Origin: a virus
Taxonomy: Duplodnaviria > Heunggongvirae > Uroviricota > Caudoviricetes
Strand: one strand, 5' to 3'
DNA length: 49,477 bases
Virus record (IMG/VR): IMGVR_UViG_2703718798_000005
In this document: positions 1,067 to 40,411 of the stretch, piece by piece
How the letters are laid out: every line of letters begins with the position of its first letter
How positions within the stretch are numbered: position 1 is the first letter of the stretch
The notes under the pieces: model-generated
Databases searched by the model: none
What the model was told of the DNA's origin: nothing
Seen by the model: only the letters and a program-made list of their open reading frames with translations
Made by a program: the position numbers and the translations under genes

Positions 1067-3172
1067 ATGAGTGAAGGACCAGGCGGGCCACAGGGAGCGA
1101 CCGCAGGCGGTACGCTGGCAATGCGAATGCTGTCACAGCAGGCGATGGTCGCCAGCCAGATGAAACGGGCAGCCAACGACAAAGCCATTGCACAGATGTT
1201 GGCATCAAAAAAGTCTGGCTCCCCCGCCGCCAGGCTGGGCGATGAAATTCAGCACAAGAGTTTTTTGGGGGCGCTGGCAGGGGCCGTGCTGGGGGCGATA
1301 GTGACCATCGCAGAAGGTTGCCTGATTATGGCCGCCTGTGCCACCGGCCCTTATGCGCTGGTTCTGGTGCCTGCGCTGATGTATGCCAGCTATAAGGCGA
1401 GTGATTATGTGGAGGAGAAACAGAACCAGCTTGAATCATGGATAAACAGCTTTTGTGACACGGACGGCGCCATCAATACCGGTTCTGAAAACGTAAAAAT
1501 TAACGGAAAGCCAGCAGCCCGTGCAGCCGTCACCCTTCCCCCTCCTCCCCCACCTGGAGCAATACCTGAAGTCCCACAGGGGGAACCCTCATGGGGTGAT
1601 ATTGCCACTGACCTGCTTGAATCGGCAGCGGAAAAAGCAGTACCACTGGCGAAGGCCTGGGGGAACGCTGTTATCACCCTGACGGACAGCAATGCCAGTT
1701 TTATGGATCGCGTCAGTGCAGGCGCATCGCTTCTGTTTCCCAGCGGCCCGGTATTAATGGAATTTGCCACGATGGTGGGCGGGCGTGGCGAAATCAAAAA
1801 AGATGTGGATTTCCCGGAAGCCGGTGAGGACACGGCGCTCTGCGACAAGGAGAACAAACCACCGAGGATAGCCCAGGGCAGCAGCAACGTCTTTATCAAC
1901 AATCAGCCTGCCGCGCGCCAGGGGGACAAACTGGAGTGCAGTGCGGCGATCGTGGAAGGTTCGCCGGACGTCTTTATTGGGGGTGAGCAGGTCACCTATC
2001 TGGATATCCAGCCGGAGTTCCCGCCATGGCAGAGAATGATCCTGGGAGGAATAACGATAGCCAGCTATCTTCTGCCGCCAGCAGGACTGCTGGGAAAACT
2101 GGGGAATCTGGCGAAACTGGGCAAACTGGGAAACCTGCTGGGGAAAAGCGGAAAGCTGCTGGGCGCAAAACTCGGCGCGTTGCTGGGGAAAACAGGTAAG
2201 TCGTTAAAAAGTATTGCCAATAAAGTCATCAGATGGGTAACAGATCCTGTCGATCCGGTAACCGGCGCGTACTGCGACGAACGTACCGACTTCACCCTGG
2301 GCCAGACCCTCCCCCTCTCCTTCACCCGTTTCCACAGTTCGGTACTGCCACTGCATGGCCTGACGGGCGTGGGCTGGAGTGACTCCTGGAGCGAATACGC
2401 CTGGGTGCGTGAACAGGGAAACCGGGTGGATATCATCAGCCTGGGAGCCACGCTGAACTTCGCCTTCGACGGTGAAAGTGATACGGCGGTTAACCCGTAT
2501 CACGCCCAGTACATTCTGCGCCGCCGTGATGATTATCTGGAGCTGTTCGACAGGGATGCACTGAGCAGCCGCTTCTTTTATGACGCCTTTCCGGGAATGC
2601 GTCTGCGCCACCCGGTGACTGACGATACCAGCGATGACCGCCTGGCACACAGCCCCGCAGACCGGATGTACATGCTGGGCGGGATGAGCGACACCGCCAG
2701 CAACCGCATCACGTTTGAGCGCGACAGCCAGTACCGGATCACGGGTGTCAGTCACACCGACGGGATCCGGCTTAAACTGACGTACCACGCCAGCGGCTAC
2801 CTGAAAGCCATTCACCGCACGGATAACGGCATACAGACGCTGGCGACCTACGAACAGGATGCGCGGGGGCGGCTGACAGAAGCGGATGCGCGGCTGGACT
2901 ACCACCTGTTTTATGAGTACGACGCTGCGGACCGGATCATCCGCTGGTCCGATAACGACCAGACGTGGAGCCGTTTCACCTACGATGAACAGGGCCGGTG
3001 CGTGACCGTCACCGGGGCGGAGGGCTATTACAACGCCACGCTGGACTATGGGGACGGCTGCACCACCGTGACGGACGGCAAGGGCGCTCACCGTTATTAC
3101 TATGATCCTGACGGCAATATTCTGCGGGAAGAAGCGCCGGACGGCAGCACCACCACGTATGAATGGGTGTAA
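1067..3172 (+). pseudogene. rhs: rhs T6SS effector, 5' portion (prePAAR motif, TM helices, PAAR domain, first Rhs repeats), truncated by prophage insertion
   Basis: 701 aa ORF: AARLGDEIQH prePAAR-type motif, hydrophobic helices, PAAR-like segment (NVFINNQPAARQGDKLECSAAIVEGSPDVFIGG), YDxxGR-type repeats; stops two codons into the prophage left end; reading frame continues at about 42661. Confidence 0.8.
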
Positions 3173-3345
3173 CCAGGTGAATCATTTGATACCAACGAGG
3201 GTTTTAGTGAAAGGAGGTGAAATCACCTGTAAGATACTGAAATAAAACAGGTGATGCTAATGCGAGCGCGGAAAGTCTATTTGATACCGATTGTGCAATA
3301 ATTAGTCGTTTATTCTAAAGTCGGCAACACTTTTGATACTACGGA
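3168..3345. repeat. Prophage left end (attL-like) with three TTTGATAC(C/T) repeats, candidate transposase-binding sites
   Basis: TTTGATACC at about 3195, TTTGATACC at about 3281, TTTGATACT at about 3334; the reverse complement GGTATCAAA / AGTATCAAA recurs three times at the right end. Confidence 0.5.
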
Positions 3346-3439
3346 TTGACGCTTAAAATGGCTTTAAAAAGGCTTAAAACGCTTTTCTCCAGATTGTCTT
3401 TAAAGGAGTGTACCACAGCACAAAATTTGCACCACTCCC

Positions 3440-3994
3440 TTACGCGCTGGTCTTTTTATAGGTTACATTGAAGTGATCAACCTTAGTCTTACAAAACTCG
3501 CAAATCTCTCTAATCTGTTCATCAGATAAATCATTTAAGCTTAAGGCTAGTGCTCTACGTTGACCGTGTAAGCTATGTAATTCCTGAATATCATTATCTA
3601 AAAGTATGGTTAAAAAATCTGCGCCTTTGCGGCCTAATTTCCTAGATAATTCATCAAGTTCTGTTGGTTCTAGAGAGCTCCATATAGCGCTAATCGTCTG
3701 GTAATCTCGTTCATCTGAAGACGCAATTGTCGGCCGAGTACTTTCTTGTGGCTGTATTGTTTTCGTGCCCAATATGAGCCATTCCAACGATACGTTTTCT
3801 ACCTTGCAAATATTGCTAACTACTTTTAGGCCAGGTGTGGTCCCTTTCTCAAAGTAGTTATTCAATGTTGAGTATGACAACCCCCAATCGATAGCTGCTT
3901 GCCGCATACTTCTGCTGCCGATTAGCTGCCTGATCCTGTCCTGGATACTTTCTTTTCCCTCTTCGACAAAAGAAAAATCTTGTTCCTGTCTCAT
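3440..3994 (-). CDS. Prophage repressor (Mu c-like), putative
   Basis: 184 aa leftward ORF at the left end, divergent from ner; HTH-like segment (LSYSTLNNYFEKG); positional equivalence to the Mu repressor. Confidence 0.55.
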   Translation of the reverse strand: MRQEQDFSFVEEGKESIQDRIRQLIGSRSMRQAAIDWGLSYSTLNNYFEKGTTPGLKVVSNICKVENVSLEWLILGTKTIQPQESTRPTIASSDERDYQTISAIWSSLEPTELDELSRKLGRKGADFLTILLDNDIQELHSLHGQRRALALSLNDLSDEQIREICEFCKTKVDHFNVTYKKTSA

Positions 3995-6566: not shown

Positions 6567-7499
6567 ATGACCGATATTAACGATGTAATCAAGACCATTG
6601 ATGAACTTATTGATGGCGGCGTACTGACACAGTATGCCATCGCCAGAGAGGCGGGAATTTCCGACGGCACATTATCGGCTTTCCGTAAGGGAAAATATAA
6701 AGGCGATAACGCTGCTGTGGCTGCTTCCCTGCGTTCCTGGTATGAGAACTGGAATAAACAAAGCGCACTGCCGGAACCGCCGCAGTTTGTGGAAACGCAG
6801 ACAGTCCAGGAGCTGCGCGCGCTGTTTCAGGCGGTTCGCCTGATGGGCTGTATTAACGTCATTGTGGGCGTGCCGGGTGTGGGTAAAACGGCCACCGCCC
6901 GTAATTACTGCCAGGAGCAACCAAACACCTGGATGATTACCCTGTCACCCGCGCACTCCAGCGTCACGGAGTGTTTGCTGGAGCTGGCCGATGCGCTGGG
7001 GATTGATTACACCCGCGCGAACAAAGGGGCATTATCCCGCGCCATCCGCCGCCGTCTGATGGGAACGCGTGGACTGGTGATTGTGGATGAGGCGGATCAT
7101 CTTGGTATTGACGGTCTGGAGCAACTCCGGGCAATTCAGGACGCCACGGGGATCGGGATGGTGCTTATTGGTAACCCGCGCGGACTGTTTAAAGGTGGAC
7201 GCCGCGCCTTTGATGATTTATCGCGCCTGTTCAGCCGTCTTGCCCGTACAAAACAACTTCGCAAGGCCAAAAAGGCAGATGTGCTGGCCATTGCCAGGGC
7301 ATGGGGTATCAGTGGTGAGGCAGAGCTGGTCGTGATGCAGGCTATCGCTGAAAAGCCCGGTGCGTTACGTGTTCTTACACATACGCTTAACCAGGCGTGG
7401 CTCACAGCCAGCGGTGAAGGCGCGGCGCTGACAGAAAAACATATTAATGCGGCCTTTAAAGAGGTTTATACCAACCCTGAATTACTCTCACAGGTGTGA
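6567..7499 (+). CDS. MuB-like ATP-dependent target DNA activator
   Basis: 310 aa; Walker A GVPGVGKT; directly downstream of the transposase. Confidence 0.85.
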   Translation: MTDINDVIKTIDELIDGGVLTQYAIAREAGISDGTLSAFRKGKYKGDNAAVAASLRSWYENWNKQSALPEPPQFVETQTVQELRALFQAVRLMGCINVIVGVPGVGKTATARNYCQEQPNTWMITLSPAHSSVTECLLELADALGIDYTRANKGALSRAIRRRLMGTRGLVIVDEADHLGIDGLEQLRAIQDATGIGMVLIGNPRGLFKGGRRAFDDLSRLFSRLARTKQLRKAKKADVLAIARAWGISGEAELVVMQAIAEKPGALRVLTHTLNQAWLTASGEGAALTEKHINAAFKEVYTNPELLSQV

Positions 7500-8726: not shown

Positions 8727-9020
8727 ATGAGCAAAGTACGCGTTATTTTTGAATTTGAGCATGTTTCGCATGACGAAAAGCTGGCAGGCAATGACTGTGT
8801 TGAAGTGCATGAAAAGATTGGAGTGGATGTGAAAACAGAACGTGATACGGAGAACAGCCCGACGTCACTCTGTGACGTTTATGCAAGTATTCTCCAGTAT
8901 CACAGTCCTGCAATTATTCAGCTTCTCTCAGCGGAATTTCAGGCATCTGTACAGGCTTTTGGGGCGGATGCCATCATTAAACGCCACCGTGTGCATAAAG
9001 CATCAGGCGCACTGCAATAA
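8727..9020 (+). CDS. Hypothetical early protein, paralog B of a tandem pair
   Basis: Start moved to the ATG at 8727; N-terminal similarity to the preceding ORF. Confidence 0.4.
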   Translation: MSKVRVIFEFEHVSHDEKLAGNDCVEVHEKIGVDVKTERDTENSPTSLCDVYASILQYHSPAIIQLLSAEFQASVQAFGADAIIKRHRVHKASGALQ

Positions 9021-9030
9021 GGAAAACAAA

Positions 9031-9561
9031 ATGGTTAAACGTGTTACAAAATTAAAGGCCGCAGCCGAGGCCGCACCACAGACCCGCGAAGAGGTCAGCC
9101 GCGATATCCGCACCCTGGGCGATATTCAGCGAGAGGCGCTGCGCCTGGAAACGGCAATGAATGATGAAGTGGCAGAAATCACCGCCCGTTATACGCCGCA
9201 GATTGAAAACCTTAAAAAAGAAATCAAAGTGCTTTTTAAGGGGATTCATGACTGGTGTAAAACCAACCGCAATGAGCTGACGAACGGCGGCGAAACCAAA
9301 ACTGCCAATCTGACCACCGGAACGGTGTCATGGCGGCTGGGAAATCCATCATGCAGCGTCAGTCGTGATGTGGAAGGTGTGATTGAAATGCTGCGTCGTA
9401 TGGGGCTTGAGCGCTTCATCCGCACGAAAGAGGAAGTGAATAAGCAAGCTGTCCTGGCGGAGCCGGATGCGGTGAAAGGGGTTGCTGGTATTAAGGTGAA
9501 TAAAGGTGCTGAAAGTTTTCATGTCGAGCCTTTTGAACAGGACGCCGGACTGAATAAATAA
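9031..9561 (+). CDS. gam: Gam-like host-nuclease inhibitor (DNA end-binding)
   Basis: Start at internal ATG 9031; DIRTLGDIQREALRLETAMNDEVAEI and ELTNGGETKTANLTTGTVSWR match the Mu Gam family as recalled. Confidence 0.75.
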   Translation: MVKRVTKLKAAAEAAPQTREEVSRDIRTLGDIQREALRLETAMNDEVAEITARYTPQIENLKKEIKVLFKGIHDWCKTNRNELTNGGETKTANLTTGTVSWRLGNPSCSVSRDVEGVIEMLRRMGLERFIRTKEEVNKQAVLAEPDAVKGVAGIKVNKGAESFHVEPFEQDAGLNK

Positions 9562-13880: not shown

Positions 13881-14306
13881 ATGGCAGAAACTCAGATGAG
13901 CATGTTTGGTGGTGACAGTGAGCAACTGCACGCCCTTATCGACCGCCTTGATGACATCCCTGATGATGTTCTCAAAAAGAACTGGCCGCGGACCCTGTCA
14001 GAACTGGTTGAAGTCACCGGCGCAGAACTTCAGCGTCAGGGGATTGAGCCGGTACTGGCCGGTAAACTGGCACGCAAGGTGGCTGCGGCTCAGGCAGCCT
14101 ATATGGGCGGACGGGGTTATTACCTGCCGGTCGGGGAATCTCTCTTTGCCGAGCTGCGAAACAATGAGATATTTTCGCGCTGGGACCGGGGCGAGAAAAT
14201 TGAATCCCTTCGCCGCCATTACCGGATGTCAGAAACCCAGATTTATACCGTCATACGTGAACAGCGCCGTCTGCATCTGGCAAGAACGCAACCGCCACTT
14301 TTCTGA
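13881..14306 (+). CDS. Mor/C-family transcriptional activator (middle/late gene activator)
   Basis: 141 aa; C-terminal HTH-like LRRHYRMSETQIYTVIREQRR; lies between the early terminator and the lysis genes as in Mu. Confidence 0.6.
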   Translation: MAETQMSMFGGDSEQLHALIDRLDDIPDDVLKKNWPRTLSELVEVTGAELQRQGIEPVLAGKLARKVAAAQAAYMGGRGYYLPVGESLFAELRNNEIFSRWDRGEKIESLRRHYRMSETQIYTVIREQRRLHLARTQPPLF

Positions 14307-35138: not shown

Positions 35139-35689
35139 CCCTGACCCCGCATCAGCGCGCCCTGTTGCAGTTGCTGCCTGACGGGCTGGCATGGGATAAG
35201 CGGCCGTCATCCGTTCTTGCGGCTTTGTGCCTGGGCCTCAGTCATTCCACGGAGCGTGTTTCCTGGACCGGTAACCAGATGCTGGCAGAACGTTTTCCTG
35301 ATTCATCCCGTCTGCTGCTGGAAGACTGGGAGCGTTATCTGGGGTTACCGGAATGTGATATGACCGGCGCAACCATTCAGGAACGTCAGCGTTATGCAGG
35401 GAATAAATACCGGATGAAACCCTCTCTTAACCGTGAATTTTATATCCGGTTTGCGGCAGAGTTTGGTTATGAAATAGATATTCAGCCATCACCGGATTCA
35501 CAGTGGGTCAGTATTGTCACGATAAACAGTGAAACCGGCTACCGGAATATGAATGTGCTGGATGATATTCTCACCCCGCTGCGTATTTATGAGGGTGGTG
35601 CGCTGGAATGTATTCTGAACCGTTATAAGCCTGCATGGCAGACGTTTATTTACGTGTATGCAAACAGTCACAAAGAGGAGAATATTTAA
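35129..35689 (+). CDS. Tail protein (Mu gp48-like, DUF2313-like)
   Basis: 186 aa; position before the tail fibre gene. Confidence 0.65.
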   Translation: MAVTLTPHQRALLQLLPDGLAWDKRPSSVLAALCLGLSHSTERVSWTGNQMLAERFPDSSRLLLEDWERYLGLPECDMTGATIQERQRYAGNKYRMKPSLNREFYIRFAAEFGYEIDIQPSPDSQWVSIVTINSETGYRNMNVLDDILTPLRIYEGGALECILNRYKPAWQTFIYVYANSHKEENI

Positions 35690-36600
35690 TGTTCCATGTT
35701 GATAATAATTCCGGCGTGGCGAATATGCCTGAACTGGCTCCGGCGCAGAGTAATACCACCACCTGGTTTACCGAAGGTGACGGACAAAAAGGTATCAGCT
35801 GGATTGGTCAGGACTGGCTGAATATTCTCCAGGCCGAACTGCTGAATATTCTGGCTGAAGCCAGTATTCAGCCGGATAAGGCGCAGTTAAACCAGCTTAC
35901 GCTGTCCATTAAAGCCATTATCGCTGCGAATGCCTTTTCCCGGAAAAACAACCTGAAAGAAATTGCTGATGCCGGTGCGGAAGCCCAGCGTCTGGCCCGT
36001 GGTTATCTTGGTCTGGGGACGCTTGCCACAAAAAACAGTCTTGGTCCCGCTGACGTTAATGCCCTGGCGAAGGATCAGAACCTTGCCGACCTGGAGAATG
36101 CGGAAACCGCCCGTAATAATCTGGATGTTTACAGCAGGAGCGAAGGTGATAACCGTTACCTGCGCAGGGACCAGAATGGCGCGGATATCCAGGACAAAGG
36201 AACCTTTATCGATAACCTCGGTTTACGGGAAACGGTAAATAAGGCTGCTGATGCCCTGCCATCGGCTGGAACCGCCGTGGCAGCAAACAGACTCGCCACC
36301 CCAAGAAATATTAATGGTGTTCCTTTTGACGGAACGCTGGATATCAACATCACGTCAGGAATGACGCAGTCAACCGCAGATGGCCGGTATGTACAGAATG
36401 TTCAGCTTGGAGCACAGAGCTATCATTCACCCGGAGGCAATGAAATGTCATGGAATTACAGCGCACCTTCCGGTTGTATGCTTTCCGGTATTAACGTGCA
36501 GGAAACCGGCTCCCGGTCTGCGGACAATATCGGTGGGGTCTATTATCGCCCGGTTCAGATTTATATTAATAATACCTGGAGAACGGTAAGTTCAGTGTAA
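35689..36600 (+). CDS. Tail fibre protein S (constant part plus currently fused variable tip)
   Basis: Start at ATG 35689 overlapping the preceding stop; crosses the left recombination site at about 36206-36231; last roughly 120 aa lie inside the invertible segment. Confidence 0.8.
   Translation: MFHVDNNSGVANMPELAPAQSNTTTWFTEGDGQKGISWIGQDWLNILQAELLNILAEASIQPDKAQLNQLTLSIKAIIAANAFSRKNNLKEIADAGAEAQRLARGYLGLGTLATKNSLGPADVNALAKDQNLADLENAETARNNLDVYSRSEGDNRYLRRDQNGADIQDKGTFIDNLGLRETVNKAADALPSAGTAVAANRLATPRNINGVPFDGTLDINITSGMTQSTADGRYVQNVQLGAQSYHSPGGNEMSWNYSAPSGCMLSGINVQETGSRSADNIGGVYYRPVQIYINNTWRTVSSV
36206..36231. repeat. Left recombination site (gix-like) inside the tail fibre gene
   Basis: TTATCGATAACCTCGGTTTACGGGAA, close to the Mu gix sequence as recalled. 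Confidence 0.7.
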
Positions 36601-36634
36601 ACCACAGAAAAGGGTGCTGAATGCACCCTCTGAA

Positions 36635-37156
36635 TTATTCCGGTTTTTCCGGCCAGGGAATCGCCTGGTAATGCCCCTCACTGGCAATATCATTAAAGTG
36701 CATTTCTTTAAGCTGTCGGATATACGCCATCCAGCGCGTCAGCTGTAATTTATTTTCATCGCTAATCATGTCCAGTTTTAATTCTGTTTTCCAGTCATCC
36801 ACGGTTTCGTTGGCTTCCTGGAGCAGCGATGAGCGACGCTTTTCAGCAACCGTCTTCCAGTTTACCGGCACCTTTGATATCAGGCCATCAGAAAACTGCC
36901 AGTTACCGTCAATATTCACACCTTCCGGCAGTTCGTCCACTTCAACAACAGTAAAACCTGCCGGATATAAAGCAGAGACATCTTCAGCAACAGAGCAGAT
37001 AATACCCGTTACAGGCGAAATACAGAGTTTGTATTTCTTTGTAAAAAGCGGGATAGATTCATAAAAATCCCTTCCGTCCTCACTCTGGAAATACTGAACA
37101 TCCTCACCATAGGGTTTGTCTTTCGGGTAATATCGTTTGACATTAATCAGTTGCAT
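36635..37156 (-). CDS. Tail fibre assembly protein (Tfa/U-like)
   Basis: Start moved to internal Met (MQLINVKRYY); C-terminal ...QAIPWPEKPE typical of Tfa chaperones; inside the invertible segment. Confidence 0.75.
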   Translation of the reverse strand: MQLINVKRYYPKDKPYGEDVQYFQSEDGRDFYESIPLFTKKYKLCISPVTGIICSVAEDVSALYPAGFTVVEVDELPEGVNIDGNWQFSDGLISKVPVNWKTVAEKRRSSLLQEANETVDDWKTELKLDMISDENKLQLTRWMAYIRQLKEMHFNDIASEGHYQAIPWPEKPE

Positions 37157-37277
37157 AAACATCACCATGTAAATCAATGATAAAAACAGGAATAATACTA
37201 TCGCCATATACAGGCAATGCTTGTCTGAAATAACGCATATTTCAGATGCTGGCTGCTGTGTGCTATGCCCCCGTTAA

Positions 37278-37649
37278 TTAAATACTTGCAGCGGATACCC
37301 AATGCCCATTAATACAATATTGTATCTGTCTGTAATAAACACGGTCATCACCACCACGCATTTCCCAGTCTCCGTCAGTCTTAAAACCGGTAATCACATT
37401 TCCTGATGACAGGGAGTAATTATATTCCAGTCCGCCGCTTAATGCCTGCGCTCCCAGTCTTACCCCTGTAACATAACGCTGATTGGCCGTTGATTCCGGC
37501 ATTCCTGACGTAATGTTTATATCCTGCGTGCCGTCAAAGGCGACACCATTGATTCTGCGGGCATTTGCCAGCCTGCTTGCTGCAACAGCCGTACCGTTTG
37601 ATGGCAGGGCATTCGCGGCCCTGTTTACCGTATCCCGTAAACCGAGGTT
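37278..37649 (-). CDS. Alternative tail-fibre C-terminal segment (promoterless until inversion)
   Basis: Minus-strand frame reads NLGLRDTVNRAANALPSNGTAVAASRLA..., parallel to NLGLRETVNKAADALPSAGTAVAANRLA... of the expressed tip; a stop lies immediately outside the right recombination site. Confidence 0.7.
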   Translation of the reverse strand, partial: NLGLRDTVNRAANALPSNGTAVAASRLANARRINGVAFDGTQDINITSGMPESTANQRYVTGVRLGAQALSGGLEYNYSLSSGNVITGFKTDGDWEMRGGDDRVYYRQIQYCINGHWVSAASI

Positions 37650-37657
37650 TCAGGGAT
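37632..37657. repeat. Right recombination site (gix-like), inverted
   Basis: ATCCCGTAAACCGAGGTTTCAGGGAT, inverted relative to the left site. Confidence 0.7.
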
Positions 37658-37711: not shown

Positions 37712-38272
37712 ATGCTGATTGGCTATATACGCGTATCAACAAATGACCAGAACACCGGTTTACAAAGAAATGCGCTGGAATGTGCAGGATGTGAGCAGAT
37801 TTTTGAAGACAAAATGAGTGGTAAAACGACACAGCGGCCGGGACTGAAGCGGGCACTGAAGAAACTAAAACCCGGTGACACGCTGATGGTCTGGAAACTG
37901 GACAGGCTGGGGCGCAGTATGCGCCACCTTGTTGCGCTGACAGATGAATTACAGCAACAGGGGATAAATTTTCGTAGTCTTACTGACAACATTGATACGT
38001 CAACCCCCATGGGGCGCTTCTTTTTTCACATAATGGGTGCGCTGGCAGAAATGGAGCGTGAATTAATTGTCGAACGGACACGGGCTGGTCTTGCAGCTGC
38101 CCGTGAAAGGGGACGAACCGGCGGCAGACCCCGCCGTCTCACGCAGGAACAATACGAGCAGGTCGGGCGTTTACTGGCCGGGGGTGTCAGTCGAAGACAG
38201 GTGGCACTTATTTTTGATATCGGTCTTTCAACCCTTTATCGTTATTATCCTGCGAGCGTTTCGGAAAAATAA
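37712..38272 (+). CDS. gin: Serine DNA invertase (Gin/Hin/Cin family)
   Basis: 186 aa; N-terminal MLIGYIRVSTNDQN catalytic-Ser motif; C-terminal HTH; adjacent to the invertible segment. Confidence 0.9.
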   Translation: MLIGYIRVSTNDQNTGLQRNALECAGCEQIFEDKMSGKTTQRPGLKRALKKLKPGDTLMVWKLDRLGRSMRHLVALTDELQQQGINFRSLTDNIDTSTPMGRFFFHIMGALAEMERELIVERTRAGLAAARERGRTGGRPRRLTQEQYEQVGRLLAGGVSRRQVALIFDIGLSTLYRYYPASVSEK

Positions 38273-38371: not shown

Positions 38372-40411
38372 ATGACGTCCAAATGGGTTCAACTATCATC
38401 AATGCCCGGAAACTTTACTGTTAAAGTTTCCGGTGGTACAGCGGCATTTCTTGAGGCTCCCTTTCCTCCGGCCGAAACAAAAGGAGGAATGACATTTGCT
38501 GACTGTCTCATCAGTTTTAATACACGGGATTGCCTGTGGGTAAGGCCAGTATCCGGTGATCCGAGTGTGGAAATTACCGGAGCGGGTATTGGTGCGGTCA
38601 TTCCGTTAAGTGCTGATGTTGCCGGTACTGCTGAACCGTCAGACTGGGATAATGCTGAAACACATACCCGTCCGTCAGGAAATGAAACTGCTTCCAGCTC
38701 CCCTTCCTGGTATTACGTGGTGGTTCTTGCTGGTCAGTCAAACGGTATGGCTTACGGTGAAGGTCTGCCACTGCCGGAGACATATGACCGCCCCGAACCG
38801 CGTATTATGCAGTTAGCCCGTCGCAGTACAGTCACGCCGGGAGGTAAAGCCTGTCAGTATAACGACATCATTCTGGCCGACCACTGTCTGCATGATGTGC
38901 AGGATATGAGTGGAAAAAATCACCCGAAAGCGGATGTGGCTAAAGGGCAATATGGCACCGTGGGTCAGGGGCTTCACATTGCCAAAAAACTGCTGCCGTT
39001 TATTCCGGCAGATGCGGGGATTCTGCTGGTTCCCTGCTGCCGTGGTGGTTCTGCATTCACGGCGGGTGCTGACGGCACGTACAGTGACAGCACGGGTGCT
39101 TCAGAGGACTCAGCCCGCTGGGGTGTGGATAAGCCGCTGTATAAGGACTTAATCAGCCGGACAAAAGCGGCACTGGCGAAGAACCCGAAAAACCGCCTGC
39201 TTGCTGTGGTGTGGATGCAGGGCGAGTTTGATATTGATGCGAAGCCGACGGAGCATTCTGCGCTGTTTCTGGCGATGGTGGAAAAATTCCGCGCAGACCT
39301 GGCTGAACAGGCGGAACAGTGTACCGGTGGCAGTGCTGCTGGCGTTCCGTGGATTTGTGGCGATACCACGTATTTCTGGAAACAGAAAAATGAACCAGCA
39401 TACCAGGCAATCTATGGCGGCTACAAAAACAAAACAGATAAAAACATTCATTTCGTTCCATTAATGACAGATGAAAATGGCGTGAATGTACCCACCAACA
39501 ATCCGGCAGAAGACCCGGATATTGAATCCATTGGTTATTACGGCTCAACGTGGCGTAACAGTGCCGCTACCTGGACATCTGCGGACCGGGCCAGCCATTT
39601 CAGTGCCTGGGCGCGCCGGGGTATTATTTCTGACCGTCTGGCCACGGCTGTTCTGACTCATGCAGGGCGAACCACAGTAAAAGCCGATGTTCCATCTTCT
39701 GAAACTGAAGCACCAGTGCCGTCACCTTCAGAAACTGAAGCAGTAACCACAACACTGCTGTCTTACCGTGTCAGTGAGTCAGAAGGAAATCTGAAAGCCC
39801 AGGGCTGGGAGCCGGCTGGCGGTAAAGCTGAAATTATCAGTGATGCAGGAGGCACAGGTGGTAAGGCAATGAAACTGACCAAGGAAACAGGTAAATCATC
39901 CTGGTATCTGGATCATGATGCCGGTACTGGTGCTGAACTGCTGAAAAATGGTGGTTTAATCAGTTGTCGTTTTAAAGTACCTGGCGACCTGGTGGCAAAC
40001 CAGTATGTCATGGCGCTTTACTGGCCGGTTTCCTCTCTGCCGCAGGGTGTCACCCTGACAGGGGATGCAGGGAATAATCTGCTGGCATCGTTCTACATCC
40101 AGACAGACGCAAAAGACCTGAATGTGATGTACCACAATGCAAAAGTGGCAACAAATAACCAGAAACTGGGAACCTTTGGTGCATTTGATAATGAATGGCA
40201 TACGCTGGCCTTCCGTTTTGCAGGAAATAACAGCCTTCAGGTTATTCCGGTTATTGATGGTCAGGATGGTGCCGCGTTTACCCTGACGCAGTCACCAGTA
40301 GGAACTTTCCCGGTGGACAAACTCCGCGTAACGGATATCACCAAAAATGCAACTTACCCGGTGCTGATTGACAGCATTGTGGTGGAAGTGAAAAAAGCGG
40401 TAACAGAATAA
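38372..40411 (+). CDS. Cargo protein: SASA/SGNH-type esterase domain (sialate O-acetylesterase-like, NanS-p-like) with a lectin-like C-terminal domain
   Basis: 679 aa; YYVVVLAGQSNGMAYGEG block resembles the GQSN motif of DUF303/SASA esterases; C-terminal 200 aa may be a ConA-like beta-sandwich; no counterpart at this position in Mu. Confidence 0.55.
   Translation: MTSKWVQLSSMPGNFTVKVSGGTAAFLEAPFPPAETKGGMTFADCLISFNTRDCLWVRPVSGDPSVEITGAGIGAVIPLSADVAGTAEPSDWDNAETHTRPSGNETASSSPSWYYVVVLAGQSNGMAYGEGLPLPETYDRPEPRIMQLARRSTVTPGGKACQYNDIILADHCLHDVQDMSGKNHPKADVAKGQYGTVGQGLHIAKKLLPFIPADAGILLVPCCRGGSAFTAGADGTYSDSTGASEDSARWGVDKPLYKDLISRTKAALAKNPKNRLLAVVWMQGEFDIDAKPTEHSALFLAMVEKFRADLAEQAEQCTGGSAAGVPWICGDTTYFWKQKNEPAYQAIYGGYKNKTDKNIHFVPLMTDENGVNVPTNNPAEDPDIESIGYYGSTWRNSAATWTSADRASHFSAWARRGIISDRLATAVLTHAGRTTVKADVPSSETEAPVPSPSETEAVTTTLLSYRVSESEGNLKAQGWEPAGGKAEIISDAGGTGGKAMKLTKETGKSSWYLDHDAGTGAELLKNGGLISCRFKVPGDLVANQYVMALYWPVSSLPQGVTLTGDAGNNLLASFYIQTDAKDLNVMYHNAKVATNNQKLGTFGAFDNEWHTLAFRFAGNNSLQVIPVIDGQDGAAFTLTQSPVGTFPVDKLRVTDITKNATYPVLIDSIVVEVKKAVTE

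Follow-up and report, generated by a model that had tools for sequence, protein, structure and literature searches.

Genes and crossover sites of the invertible segment

We analyzed the window, a stretch of 49,477 nucleotides (nt; IMG/VR virus record IMGVR_UViG_2703718798_000005), which is a Mu-like prophage of Escherichia coli of the Sp18 type, and we describe here a tail-fibre switch in which two alternative fibre tips flank a single tail-fibre assembly (chaperone) gene, tfa. The fibre open reading frame (ORF; 35689-36600 on the plus strand, reading ...FIDNLGLRETVNK...) begins with a constant N-terminal part of 175 residues, Sc (35689-36213), that lies outside the invertible segment, matches PHROG 1833 (tail fibre; E-value 3e-164) and is homologous to residues 1-191 of Mu S (domain E-value 5e-43). 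It ends with tip A (36214-36600, plus strand, A1 type), the expressed C-terminal 128 residues. At the other end of the segment, tip B (37278-37649, minus strand, B1 type) encodes a silent alternative C-terminus of 123 residues that reads NLGLRDTVNR... and lacks its own start codon. An inversion replaces the last 128 (A) or 123 (B) residues of the fibre; a constant part outside the segment, with alternative tips on opposite strands inside it, is also the arrangement of the Mu G and P1 C segments.

The tfa gene (36635-37156, minus strand) encodes a protein of 173 residues that was identified by Pfam PF02413 (Caudo_TAP; E-value 2.4e-18, 67 bits for a cut-off of 22.1), by PHROG 136 (E-value 3e-57) and by its similarity to Mu Tfa U (PDB 5YVQ_B, E-value 1e-15); RefSeq places its start at the equivalent of 37156. 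The order of the segment is therefore tip A on the plus strand, a hairpin, tfa on the minus strand, a spacer of 121 nt (37157-37277) and tip B on the minus strand. Since the three plus-strand ORFs between 36600 and 37700 (44, 98 and 71 residues) matched no PHROG family, the segment carries no plus-strand tfa. Thus, with one Caudo_TAP gene only, each tip does not have its own assembly gene as in the S-U and S'-U' pairs, and the one gene does not adjoin a co-oriented fibre either, being convergent with tip A and 121 nt away from tip B. The G+C-rich, terminator-like hairpin between the convergent stops of tip A and tfa (36609-36631) was found by a terminator scan and folds with -16 kcal/mol on the minus strand (z -3.0; tail UUUUCUGUGGUUU) and -14.7 kcal/mol on the plus strand (z -2.7). 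It seems the stronger terminator for minus-strand transcription, the sense of tfa.

Tips A and B are homologous throughout and 36% identical over their distal 74 aligned positions. Over its distal 73-77 residues, tip A shares 59-62% identity with the fibre ends of Rac-SA53, of the P2-like phage fiAA91-ss and of SfMu gp52. The distal 68 residues of tip B match residues 436-503 of Mu S (domain E-value 1e-20), a part that was crystallised with Tfa in PDB 5YVQ. Each tip provides a different receptor-binding end and hence, presumably, a different host range.

A 26-nt repeat (AACCTCGGTTTACGGGAAACGGTAAA; 36214-36239, plus strand) recurs as its reverse complement, with one mismatch (A/T), at 37624-37649, where the chance expectation was zero matches in 100 shuffles. 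In a repeat search the similarity extends to 179 nt with 75% complementarity (36214-36392 against 37471-37649), because the proximal halves of the two tips are homologous (first 55 residues 78% identical). The repeat overlaps two inverted gix-like crossover sites of 26 base pairs (bp), in which half-sites of 12 bp flank the same 2-bp core: the left site at 36206-36231 (TTATCGATAACC TC GGTTTACGGGAA, central TC at 36218-36219) and the right site at 37632-37657 (ATCCCGTAAACC GA GGTTTCAGGGAT, central GA at 37644-37645, which is TC on the other strand). The exchanged segment measures 1,426 bp (36219-37644), and the lone mismatch of the repeat falls outside both sites. The left site matches Mu gixL (TTATCCAAAACC TC GGTTTACAGGAA) at 23 of 26 positions, and its place within the fibre gene is that of gix in Mu gene S (...DQNGADIQDKGTFIDNLGLRETVNKA aligned to Mu S ...DRNGADIPNKPLFIQNLGLQETVNRA). 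Only two matches to the repeat and to its AAACCNNGGTTT core were found in or near the segment, which therefore is not a multi-site cluster of the Min or shufflon kind.

Immediately right of the segment lies an intact gene for a Gin-type serine DNA invertase of 186 residues (37712-38272, plus strand). The protein carries the motif YIRVSTNDQ, an N-terminal catalytic domain (Pfam Resolvase, E-value 1.4e-51) and a C-terminal helix-turn-helix domain (HTH_7, E-value 1.7e-14), and its residues 1-182 align with the Mu Gin structures PDB 3UJ3 and 4M6F (E-value 2.3e-91). In Mu, a recombinational enhancer that depends on Fis acts in cis from within the 5' part of the invertase gene. Over the 275 aligned positions between the right site and position +200 of gin, the window and Mu agree at 187, and the first 100 nt of gin include long identical blocks. 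At one related locus (L030, 7537-8083) the gin homologue was recovered as two overlapping tblastn segments (residues 1-50 and 43-182), which suggests that the invertase may be frameshifted in that prophage, which has the tip A orientation.

A first-pass annotation of the same letters had read this locus as a Gin-type invertible segment with two fibre tips and one chaperone gene, and its reading holds up. The inverted repeats do bracket the segment, within a few bases of where they had been placed; the left one lies in the fibre gene and the right one encodes NLGLRDTVNR on the opposite strand, in a frame that stops at 37278. The proposed swap of the fibre C-terminus, the position of tfa behind the minus-strand tip, the lack of a plus-strand chaperone for tip A and the contrast with the U and U' genes of Mu were all recovered as well.

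Inversion in nature and conservation of the layout

We built the inverted isomer in silico by exchange at the TC/GA cores and searched both orientations in 5,426 complete E. coli genomes. Counting genomes that covered at least 80% of the query, the orientation of the window (tip A expressed) was found in 183 genomes and the inverted one (tip B expressed) in 27. In two complete genomes, CP045827 and AP026099, the inverted isomer was present at 100.0% identity over 2,701 nt, and the junctions found in nature lie exactly at the predicted core. The annotations agree with this exchange, since Sc-tip A and Sc-tip B fusions are annotated as whole genes in different genomes and tip B is fused in frame to Sc in genomes of the other orientation (L002). 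In strain AUSMDU00014361, for instance, the fibre is annotated as Sc fused to tip B and followed by tfa, and tip A is annotated on the other strand as an N-terminally incomplete pseudogene. Moreover, pairs of opposite orientation were found at several levels of divergence (98.3%, 95.7% and 95.5% identity to the window), indicating that the flip happened repeatedly. The segment thus inverts in nature.

In addition, contigs from draft genomes break at or within the repeat, with ends at the left repeat or up to about 130 nt past it, in nine IMG/VR records of close relatives whose fibre N-terminus is at least 94% identical (L009, L018, L027, L031, L033, L034, L035, L037 and L038) and in a further one from a group at 72% identity (L042). 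Short-read assemblies break in this way when cultures hold both orientations, so these breaks fit such mixtures, but they are suggestive only.

The layout was then compared across relatives, using 58 viral-contig loci and 4 genome loci that were fetched through the constant fibre part and onto which the parts of the segment were mapped. Both tips were recovered in 20 of the fetched relatives, and all of these have the order tip, one tfa, tip', with orientations of both kinds; tfa shares the strand of tip B in every relative, and two tfa genes were present in none of the 82 genome rows among the matches listed. Within the family we distinguished five classes of tip A, four classes of tip B and two deeply diverged groups of tfa, which are 61-64% identical to each other and form four clusters at the 90% level. 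The tfa and tip alleles are freely reassorted, giving a mosaic, and no strict co-variation of tfa alleles with either tip was found among the family loci. Between diverged alleles, the ratio of nonsynonymous to synonymous substitution rates (dN/dS) is 0.05-0.14 for tip A and 0.10-0.23 for tip B (0.18-0.23 for the B1-type tip of the window), and such low values indicate that both tips are maintained under purifying selection.

The same layout extends beyond E. coli. A prophage of Citrobacter braakii whose constant part is 74% identical has a fibre on the plus strand, a perfect hairpin, and then tfa and tip' on the minus strand. In contrast, locus L040 (constant part 65% identical) has the canonical Mu layout, in which both fibre parts have a tfa gene of their own at a distance of 1-7 nt. 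The single-chaperone state is therefore derived and was then kept. The single-tfa asymmetry is therefore a conserved design of this prophage family and not a local accident. Where the first-pass annotation had left room for a single orientation with an inactive gin, or for a second Tfa gene on the plus strand, both orientations were seen, gin is intact and no such gene was found; the comparison with related prophages that it had called for returned both orientations and the single-tfa layout throughout the family. Separately, in C. braakii ATCC 51113 (L004, same as L049) we noticed three crossover-like sites (6819-6852, 8823-8856 and 9190-9223), with two tip segments on the minus strand and one tfa, which suggests that this locus may be a multi-isomer, Min-like version of the single-chaperone layout.

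A subset of relatives has lost the switch. Seven fetched loci (L013, for instance at 2298-3560, L014, L015, L025, L028, L032 and L036) and at least seven complete genomes (CP145714, AP022815, AP022811, CP010183, CP010180, CP010219 and CP011018) are locked: gin and the right crossover site are gone, and of tip' only about 20 codons are left. What remains is a fibre gene with an A-class tip on the plus strand, a convergent tfa on the minus strand and then, directly, the esterase gene that lies right of gin in the window. One deletion junction is common to the locked loci, which are also 98% identical to one another over the 330 nt upstream of tfa. Their A tips, in contrast, are of three kinds, and their tfa alleles are separated by a synonymous divergence (dS) of 0.11-0.43, with a dN/dS of 0.11-0.23. 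All their tfa ORFs are intact. Since the only fibre gene of these prophages is on the other strand, their tfa, if it is still used, needs a transcription start of its own.

Partner and transcription of the single tfa gene

In Mu, a variable N-terminal domain of Tfa binds the fibre (North et al. 2019, as summarised in PMC9608196); according to the same summary, conserved C-terminal helices drive trimerisation and the protein remains on the virion. We looked at the company that close homologues of the window N-domain keep elsewhere. Through Tfa, 80 loci were fetched, and the 30 non-redundant ones outside the Sp18 family, with N-domains identical to that of the window at 56-64 of 91-94 positions, were examined. 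In 29 of these 30 loci the gene directly upstream, on the same strand and 5-17 nt away, encodes a fibre. The last 71-77 residues of 20 of these 29 fibres are clearly A1-like (41-49 identical; gap of 11-15 nt), and the other nine belong to a third tip class that scores nearest to A1; a B1- or B3-like fibre was found upstream in none of the 29. Likewise, tail1 of Rac-SA53 ends in an A-like tip (48 of 77 residues identical) and is followed 2 nt later by tail2, which is 51% identical to the window Tfa overall and 67% in the N-domain (61 of 91 residues). By association, the window Tfa is thus of the type expected to partner tip A, the tip encoded on the opposite strand, and tip A, which looks like an orphan in the window, is probably not orphaned.

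This kinship is not exclusive. Mu U and SfMu gp51 are about 91% identical (82 of 95 residues in the N-domain, 77 of 80 in the C-domain), yet the tip upstream is the B1-like one of Mu S in the case of Mu U and an A-like one in the case of gp51. An A-like tip also precedes gpG, the U-type Tfa of fiAA91-ss, a viable P2-like phage. A-like tips hence occur with two families of Tfa N-domains and U-type Tfas with both tip classes, so that the relation is many-to-many. All compared tips end in a similar motif, roughly YYRP-Q-IN(G/N)-W, and it is plausible that this shared C-terminal motif is a common handle for Tfa.

The spacer between tip B and tfa is the candidate site of a tfa promoter. Such spacers measure 51-121 nt in single-tfa loci, against 2-17 nt in more than 30 canonical fibre-tfa pairs and 1-7 nt in L040, and a long spacer is what would be expected if a start signal had been added. 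Their length goes with the class of tip B: 79 nt in L001 (4558-4636), 51 nt in L012 (7436-7486) and 121 nt in the window (37157-37277). Between alleles, similarity breaks exactly at the start codon of tfa (MQLIN... against MELI...), which points to recombination hot spots at the borders of the modules. The spacer of the window contains a hairpin (37225-37245, minus strand; CTGAAATATGCGTTATTTCAG) with a 9-bp stem and -10.6 kcal/mol, which is unique in the window and belongs to a block conserved in L003 and in the locked loci. Adjoining it, 37263-37277 (minus strand) resembles the C-box dyad of the Mu mom promoter, Pmom (CTATGCCCCCGTTAA against TTATGCCCCAATAA). As a late promoter this sequence was set aside and kept as a lead only, its distance to any -10-like hexamer being off by 3-4 bp; the hairpin and the CTGAATTAACG-like motifs, which rise barely above shuffles, are likewise leads only for a promoter or an activator box. 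No RNA family was detected by Rfam at a permissive threshold between 35500 and 38500, and the spacer had no BLAST match in the phage collection.

We also rejected an alternative start of tfa at the in-frame ATG 37207, 51 nt upstream, because L003 has ATA in its place and the start in RefSeq corresponds to 37156. Starting at 37207 would add to Tfa a very hydrophobic leader of 17 residues (MAIVLFLFLSLIYMVMF, 37157-37207).

How one chaperone could serve two tips

With moderate confidence, we favour the reading that one chaperone is shared by both tips and expressed independently of the orientation. The locus is a miniature Mu G segment, in which the Gin-type invertase recombines the two inverted gix-like sites and joins the 175 residues of Sc either to the 128 of tip A or to the 123 of tip B; a single Tfa would fold, and perhaps cap, both tips. 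When tip B is expressed, tfa lies downstream on the same strand and would be read from the late tail operon. When tip A is expressed, tfa is convergent and would need a separate transcription start, for which the long upstream spacer is the most likely place. We infer from sequence both that Tfa acts on the two tips and that its transcription does not depend on orientation.

Several observations weigh against this reading. Sigma-70 scans upstream of tfa, on its strand, gave nothing above background in the window, the Sakai-type allele L001, the B3-type allele L012 or the locked L013; given that Mu late promoters have no -35 element and depend on an activator (PMC2582627), this negative result is weak evidence. 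A comparison of the three spacer types yielded no clear common motif, and the C-box-like sequence is not conserved in L003 or in the locked loci. The signature of purifying selection on the locked tfa could have been imported by recombination with unlocked phages. In SfMu, gp52-gp51 is the unexpressed orientation and inversion is maybe impaired (PMC4406740), so that the pairing of an A-like tip with a U-type Tfa is not proven functional there. Finally, the skew of 183 to 27 favours the state without a co-oriented tfa; it could come from clones that inherit one orientation and rarely flip, from unequal rates, or from selection acting in the lysogen.

The same lack of a detectable tfa promoter in the window orientation, together with the position of tfa on the strand of tip B in every relative, would also be seen if Tfa worked only when co-transcribed with tip B, and tip A either folded without a dedicated chaperone or borrowed the Tfa of a co-resident prophage. 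The Tfas of lambdoid and P2-like E. coli phages are 51-58% identical (60-69% in the N-domains) and could complement in trans. We consider this main rival unlikely: A-type tips elsewhere always have their own tfa within 2-17 nt, so that the class looks chaperone-dependent, the locked derivative retains an intact tfa opposite its A tip though tip B is gone, and dependence on co-resident prophages would fail in a new host. A related idea, to which we give a little less credence, is that inversion switches the supply of chaperone too, tip B being made with a co-transcribed tfa and Tfa maybe kept on the fibre, and tip A being made with tfa silent and left uncapped or borrowing. If true, both infectivity and host range would hinge on which prophages the producing cell carries.

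Degeneration seems improbable to us. That a second tfa was deleted by accident and the tip A orientation is a fibre-defective OFF state would agree with the two tfa genes of L040, which make the single-tfa state derived, and with the many defective prophages of Shiga toxin-producing E. coli (STEC; PMC2669165). Yet the layout is conserved across alleles saturated at synonymous sites and also in Citrobacter, tip A is under strong purifying selection between diverged alleles, as its dN/dS shows, and 183 of 210 genomes are in the tip A orientation. Furthermore, a simple deletion from a tipA-tfa / tfa'-tipB arrangement cannot yield a tfa of the A-partner type oriented with tip B, and Sp18 itself was judged intact and packaged (PMC2669165). 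Hardly credible is the notion that the repeats are mere homologous gene ends of a fossil G segment that no longer inverts. It could appeal to the one mismatch between the two 26-nt repeats and to SfMu, for which a change of 1 bp in one of the inverted repeats has been proposed as a cause of impaired inversion (PMC4406740). But gin is intact and the mismatch does not fall within the gix-like site, and the notion is refuted by the occurrence of both isomers among near-identical prophages, at 100% identity and with the junction exactly at the predicted core.

Gin systems and Tfa proteins are textbook subjects, and the single-chaperone switch is best set beside the G segment and Gin of Mu (with C and Cin of P1). 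In each, the invertase gene follows the right end of the segment (the protein of the window is about 80% identical to Gin) and the 26-bp gix sites are near-identical, the left one at the same codon position of the fibre gene; the parts of the window have homologues in Mu S (residues 1-191 for Sc, the S tip for the distal domain of tip B) and in U (for Tfa). However, the window segment is shorter (1.43 kb against 3 kb), as are its variable parts (123-128 residues against about 320), it has one tfa in place of U and U', and its spacer between tip B and tfa is 121 nt where Mu has 2 nt. Unlike Mu, it has a hairpin between convergent genes and a NanS-p esterase in place of com-mom right of gin, and its Tfa N-domain is only about 30% identical to those of U and U' and falls in a subgroup associated with Rac-SA53 and P2-like phages. 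SfMu has two tfa genes, as does Mu. The H-G pairs of P2 and fiAA91-ss, tail1-tail2 of Rac-SA53 and stf-tfa of lambda use the same tip A and Tfa modules, but in these P2-like and lambdoid pairs tfa follows the fibre by 2-17 nt on the same strand and there is no inversion, whereas tip A and tfa are convergent in the window. As in Min of p15B and in shufflons, site-specific inversion shuffles the 3' ends of an adhesin or fibre gene, but here with two sites only. CP066032, whose Mu-like fibre inversion was confirmed by long reads (PMC9881135), was considered as an example of the Sp18 family and discarded, as its segment is of the canonical two-tfa Mu/SfMu type.

That Sp18 has an invertible region is already known. 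In a limited literature search we found no published account of the layout, be it the conserved single chaperone or the convergent geometry, of the relatedness of Tfa to partners of the opposite-strand tip, or of the locked derivative. Tail-fibre tips and their chaperones are modules that are swapped to retarget phages and tailocins, and the usual rule is one tip with one cognate chaperone right behind it. A widespread natural switch whose two tips are only 36% identical distally and would share one chaperone argues against that rule, as does the free reassortment of tfa and tip alleles. Both suggest a Tfa specificity wider than the rule allows, and a chaperone that can come from a transcription unit of its own. 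The segment offers a compact natural cassette of 1.4 kb for testing Tfa recognition, with the shared YYRP-Q-IN(G/N)-W motif as a candidate. For STEC biology, it means that Sp18-type prophages actively phase-vary their host range. The locus should be of use to engineers of receptor-binding proteins and to those who study Tfa specificity, and will hold little surprise for the specialist.

The surroundings of the segment place the prophage. The window has ORFs of the size of MuA and MuB, as well as GemA and a Mor-family activator (13881-14306), and homologues of baseplate J (Mu gp47) and of gp48 lie immediately upstream of the tail-fibre gene. Several complete genomes of STEC, E. coli O157:H7 among them, match the 2.7 kb around the invertible segment at 100%, and identity to STEC prophages bearing Sakai-era protein accessions is 95-100%. 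The window thus belongs to the family of Sp18, the Mu-like prophage of O157:H7 strain Sakai, which was reported to be intact and efficiently packaged (PMC2669165). The Sakai-type allele differs in its tip B2, 57% identical to B1 of the window, and in its 79-nt spacer. Right of gin, where Mu has com-mom, the window encodes a NanS-p-type 9-O-acetyl-sialic-acid esterase of 679 residues (38372-40411, plus strand) with the Pfam domains SASA and DUF6645; its residues 104-428 match E. coli NanS (PDB 3PT5, E-value 2e-118) and residues 459-674 match NanS-p (6YP6, E-value 3e-112). A gene of this type was found in all members of the Sp18 family, 47-99% identical.

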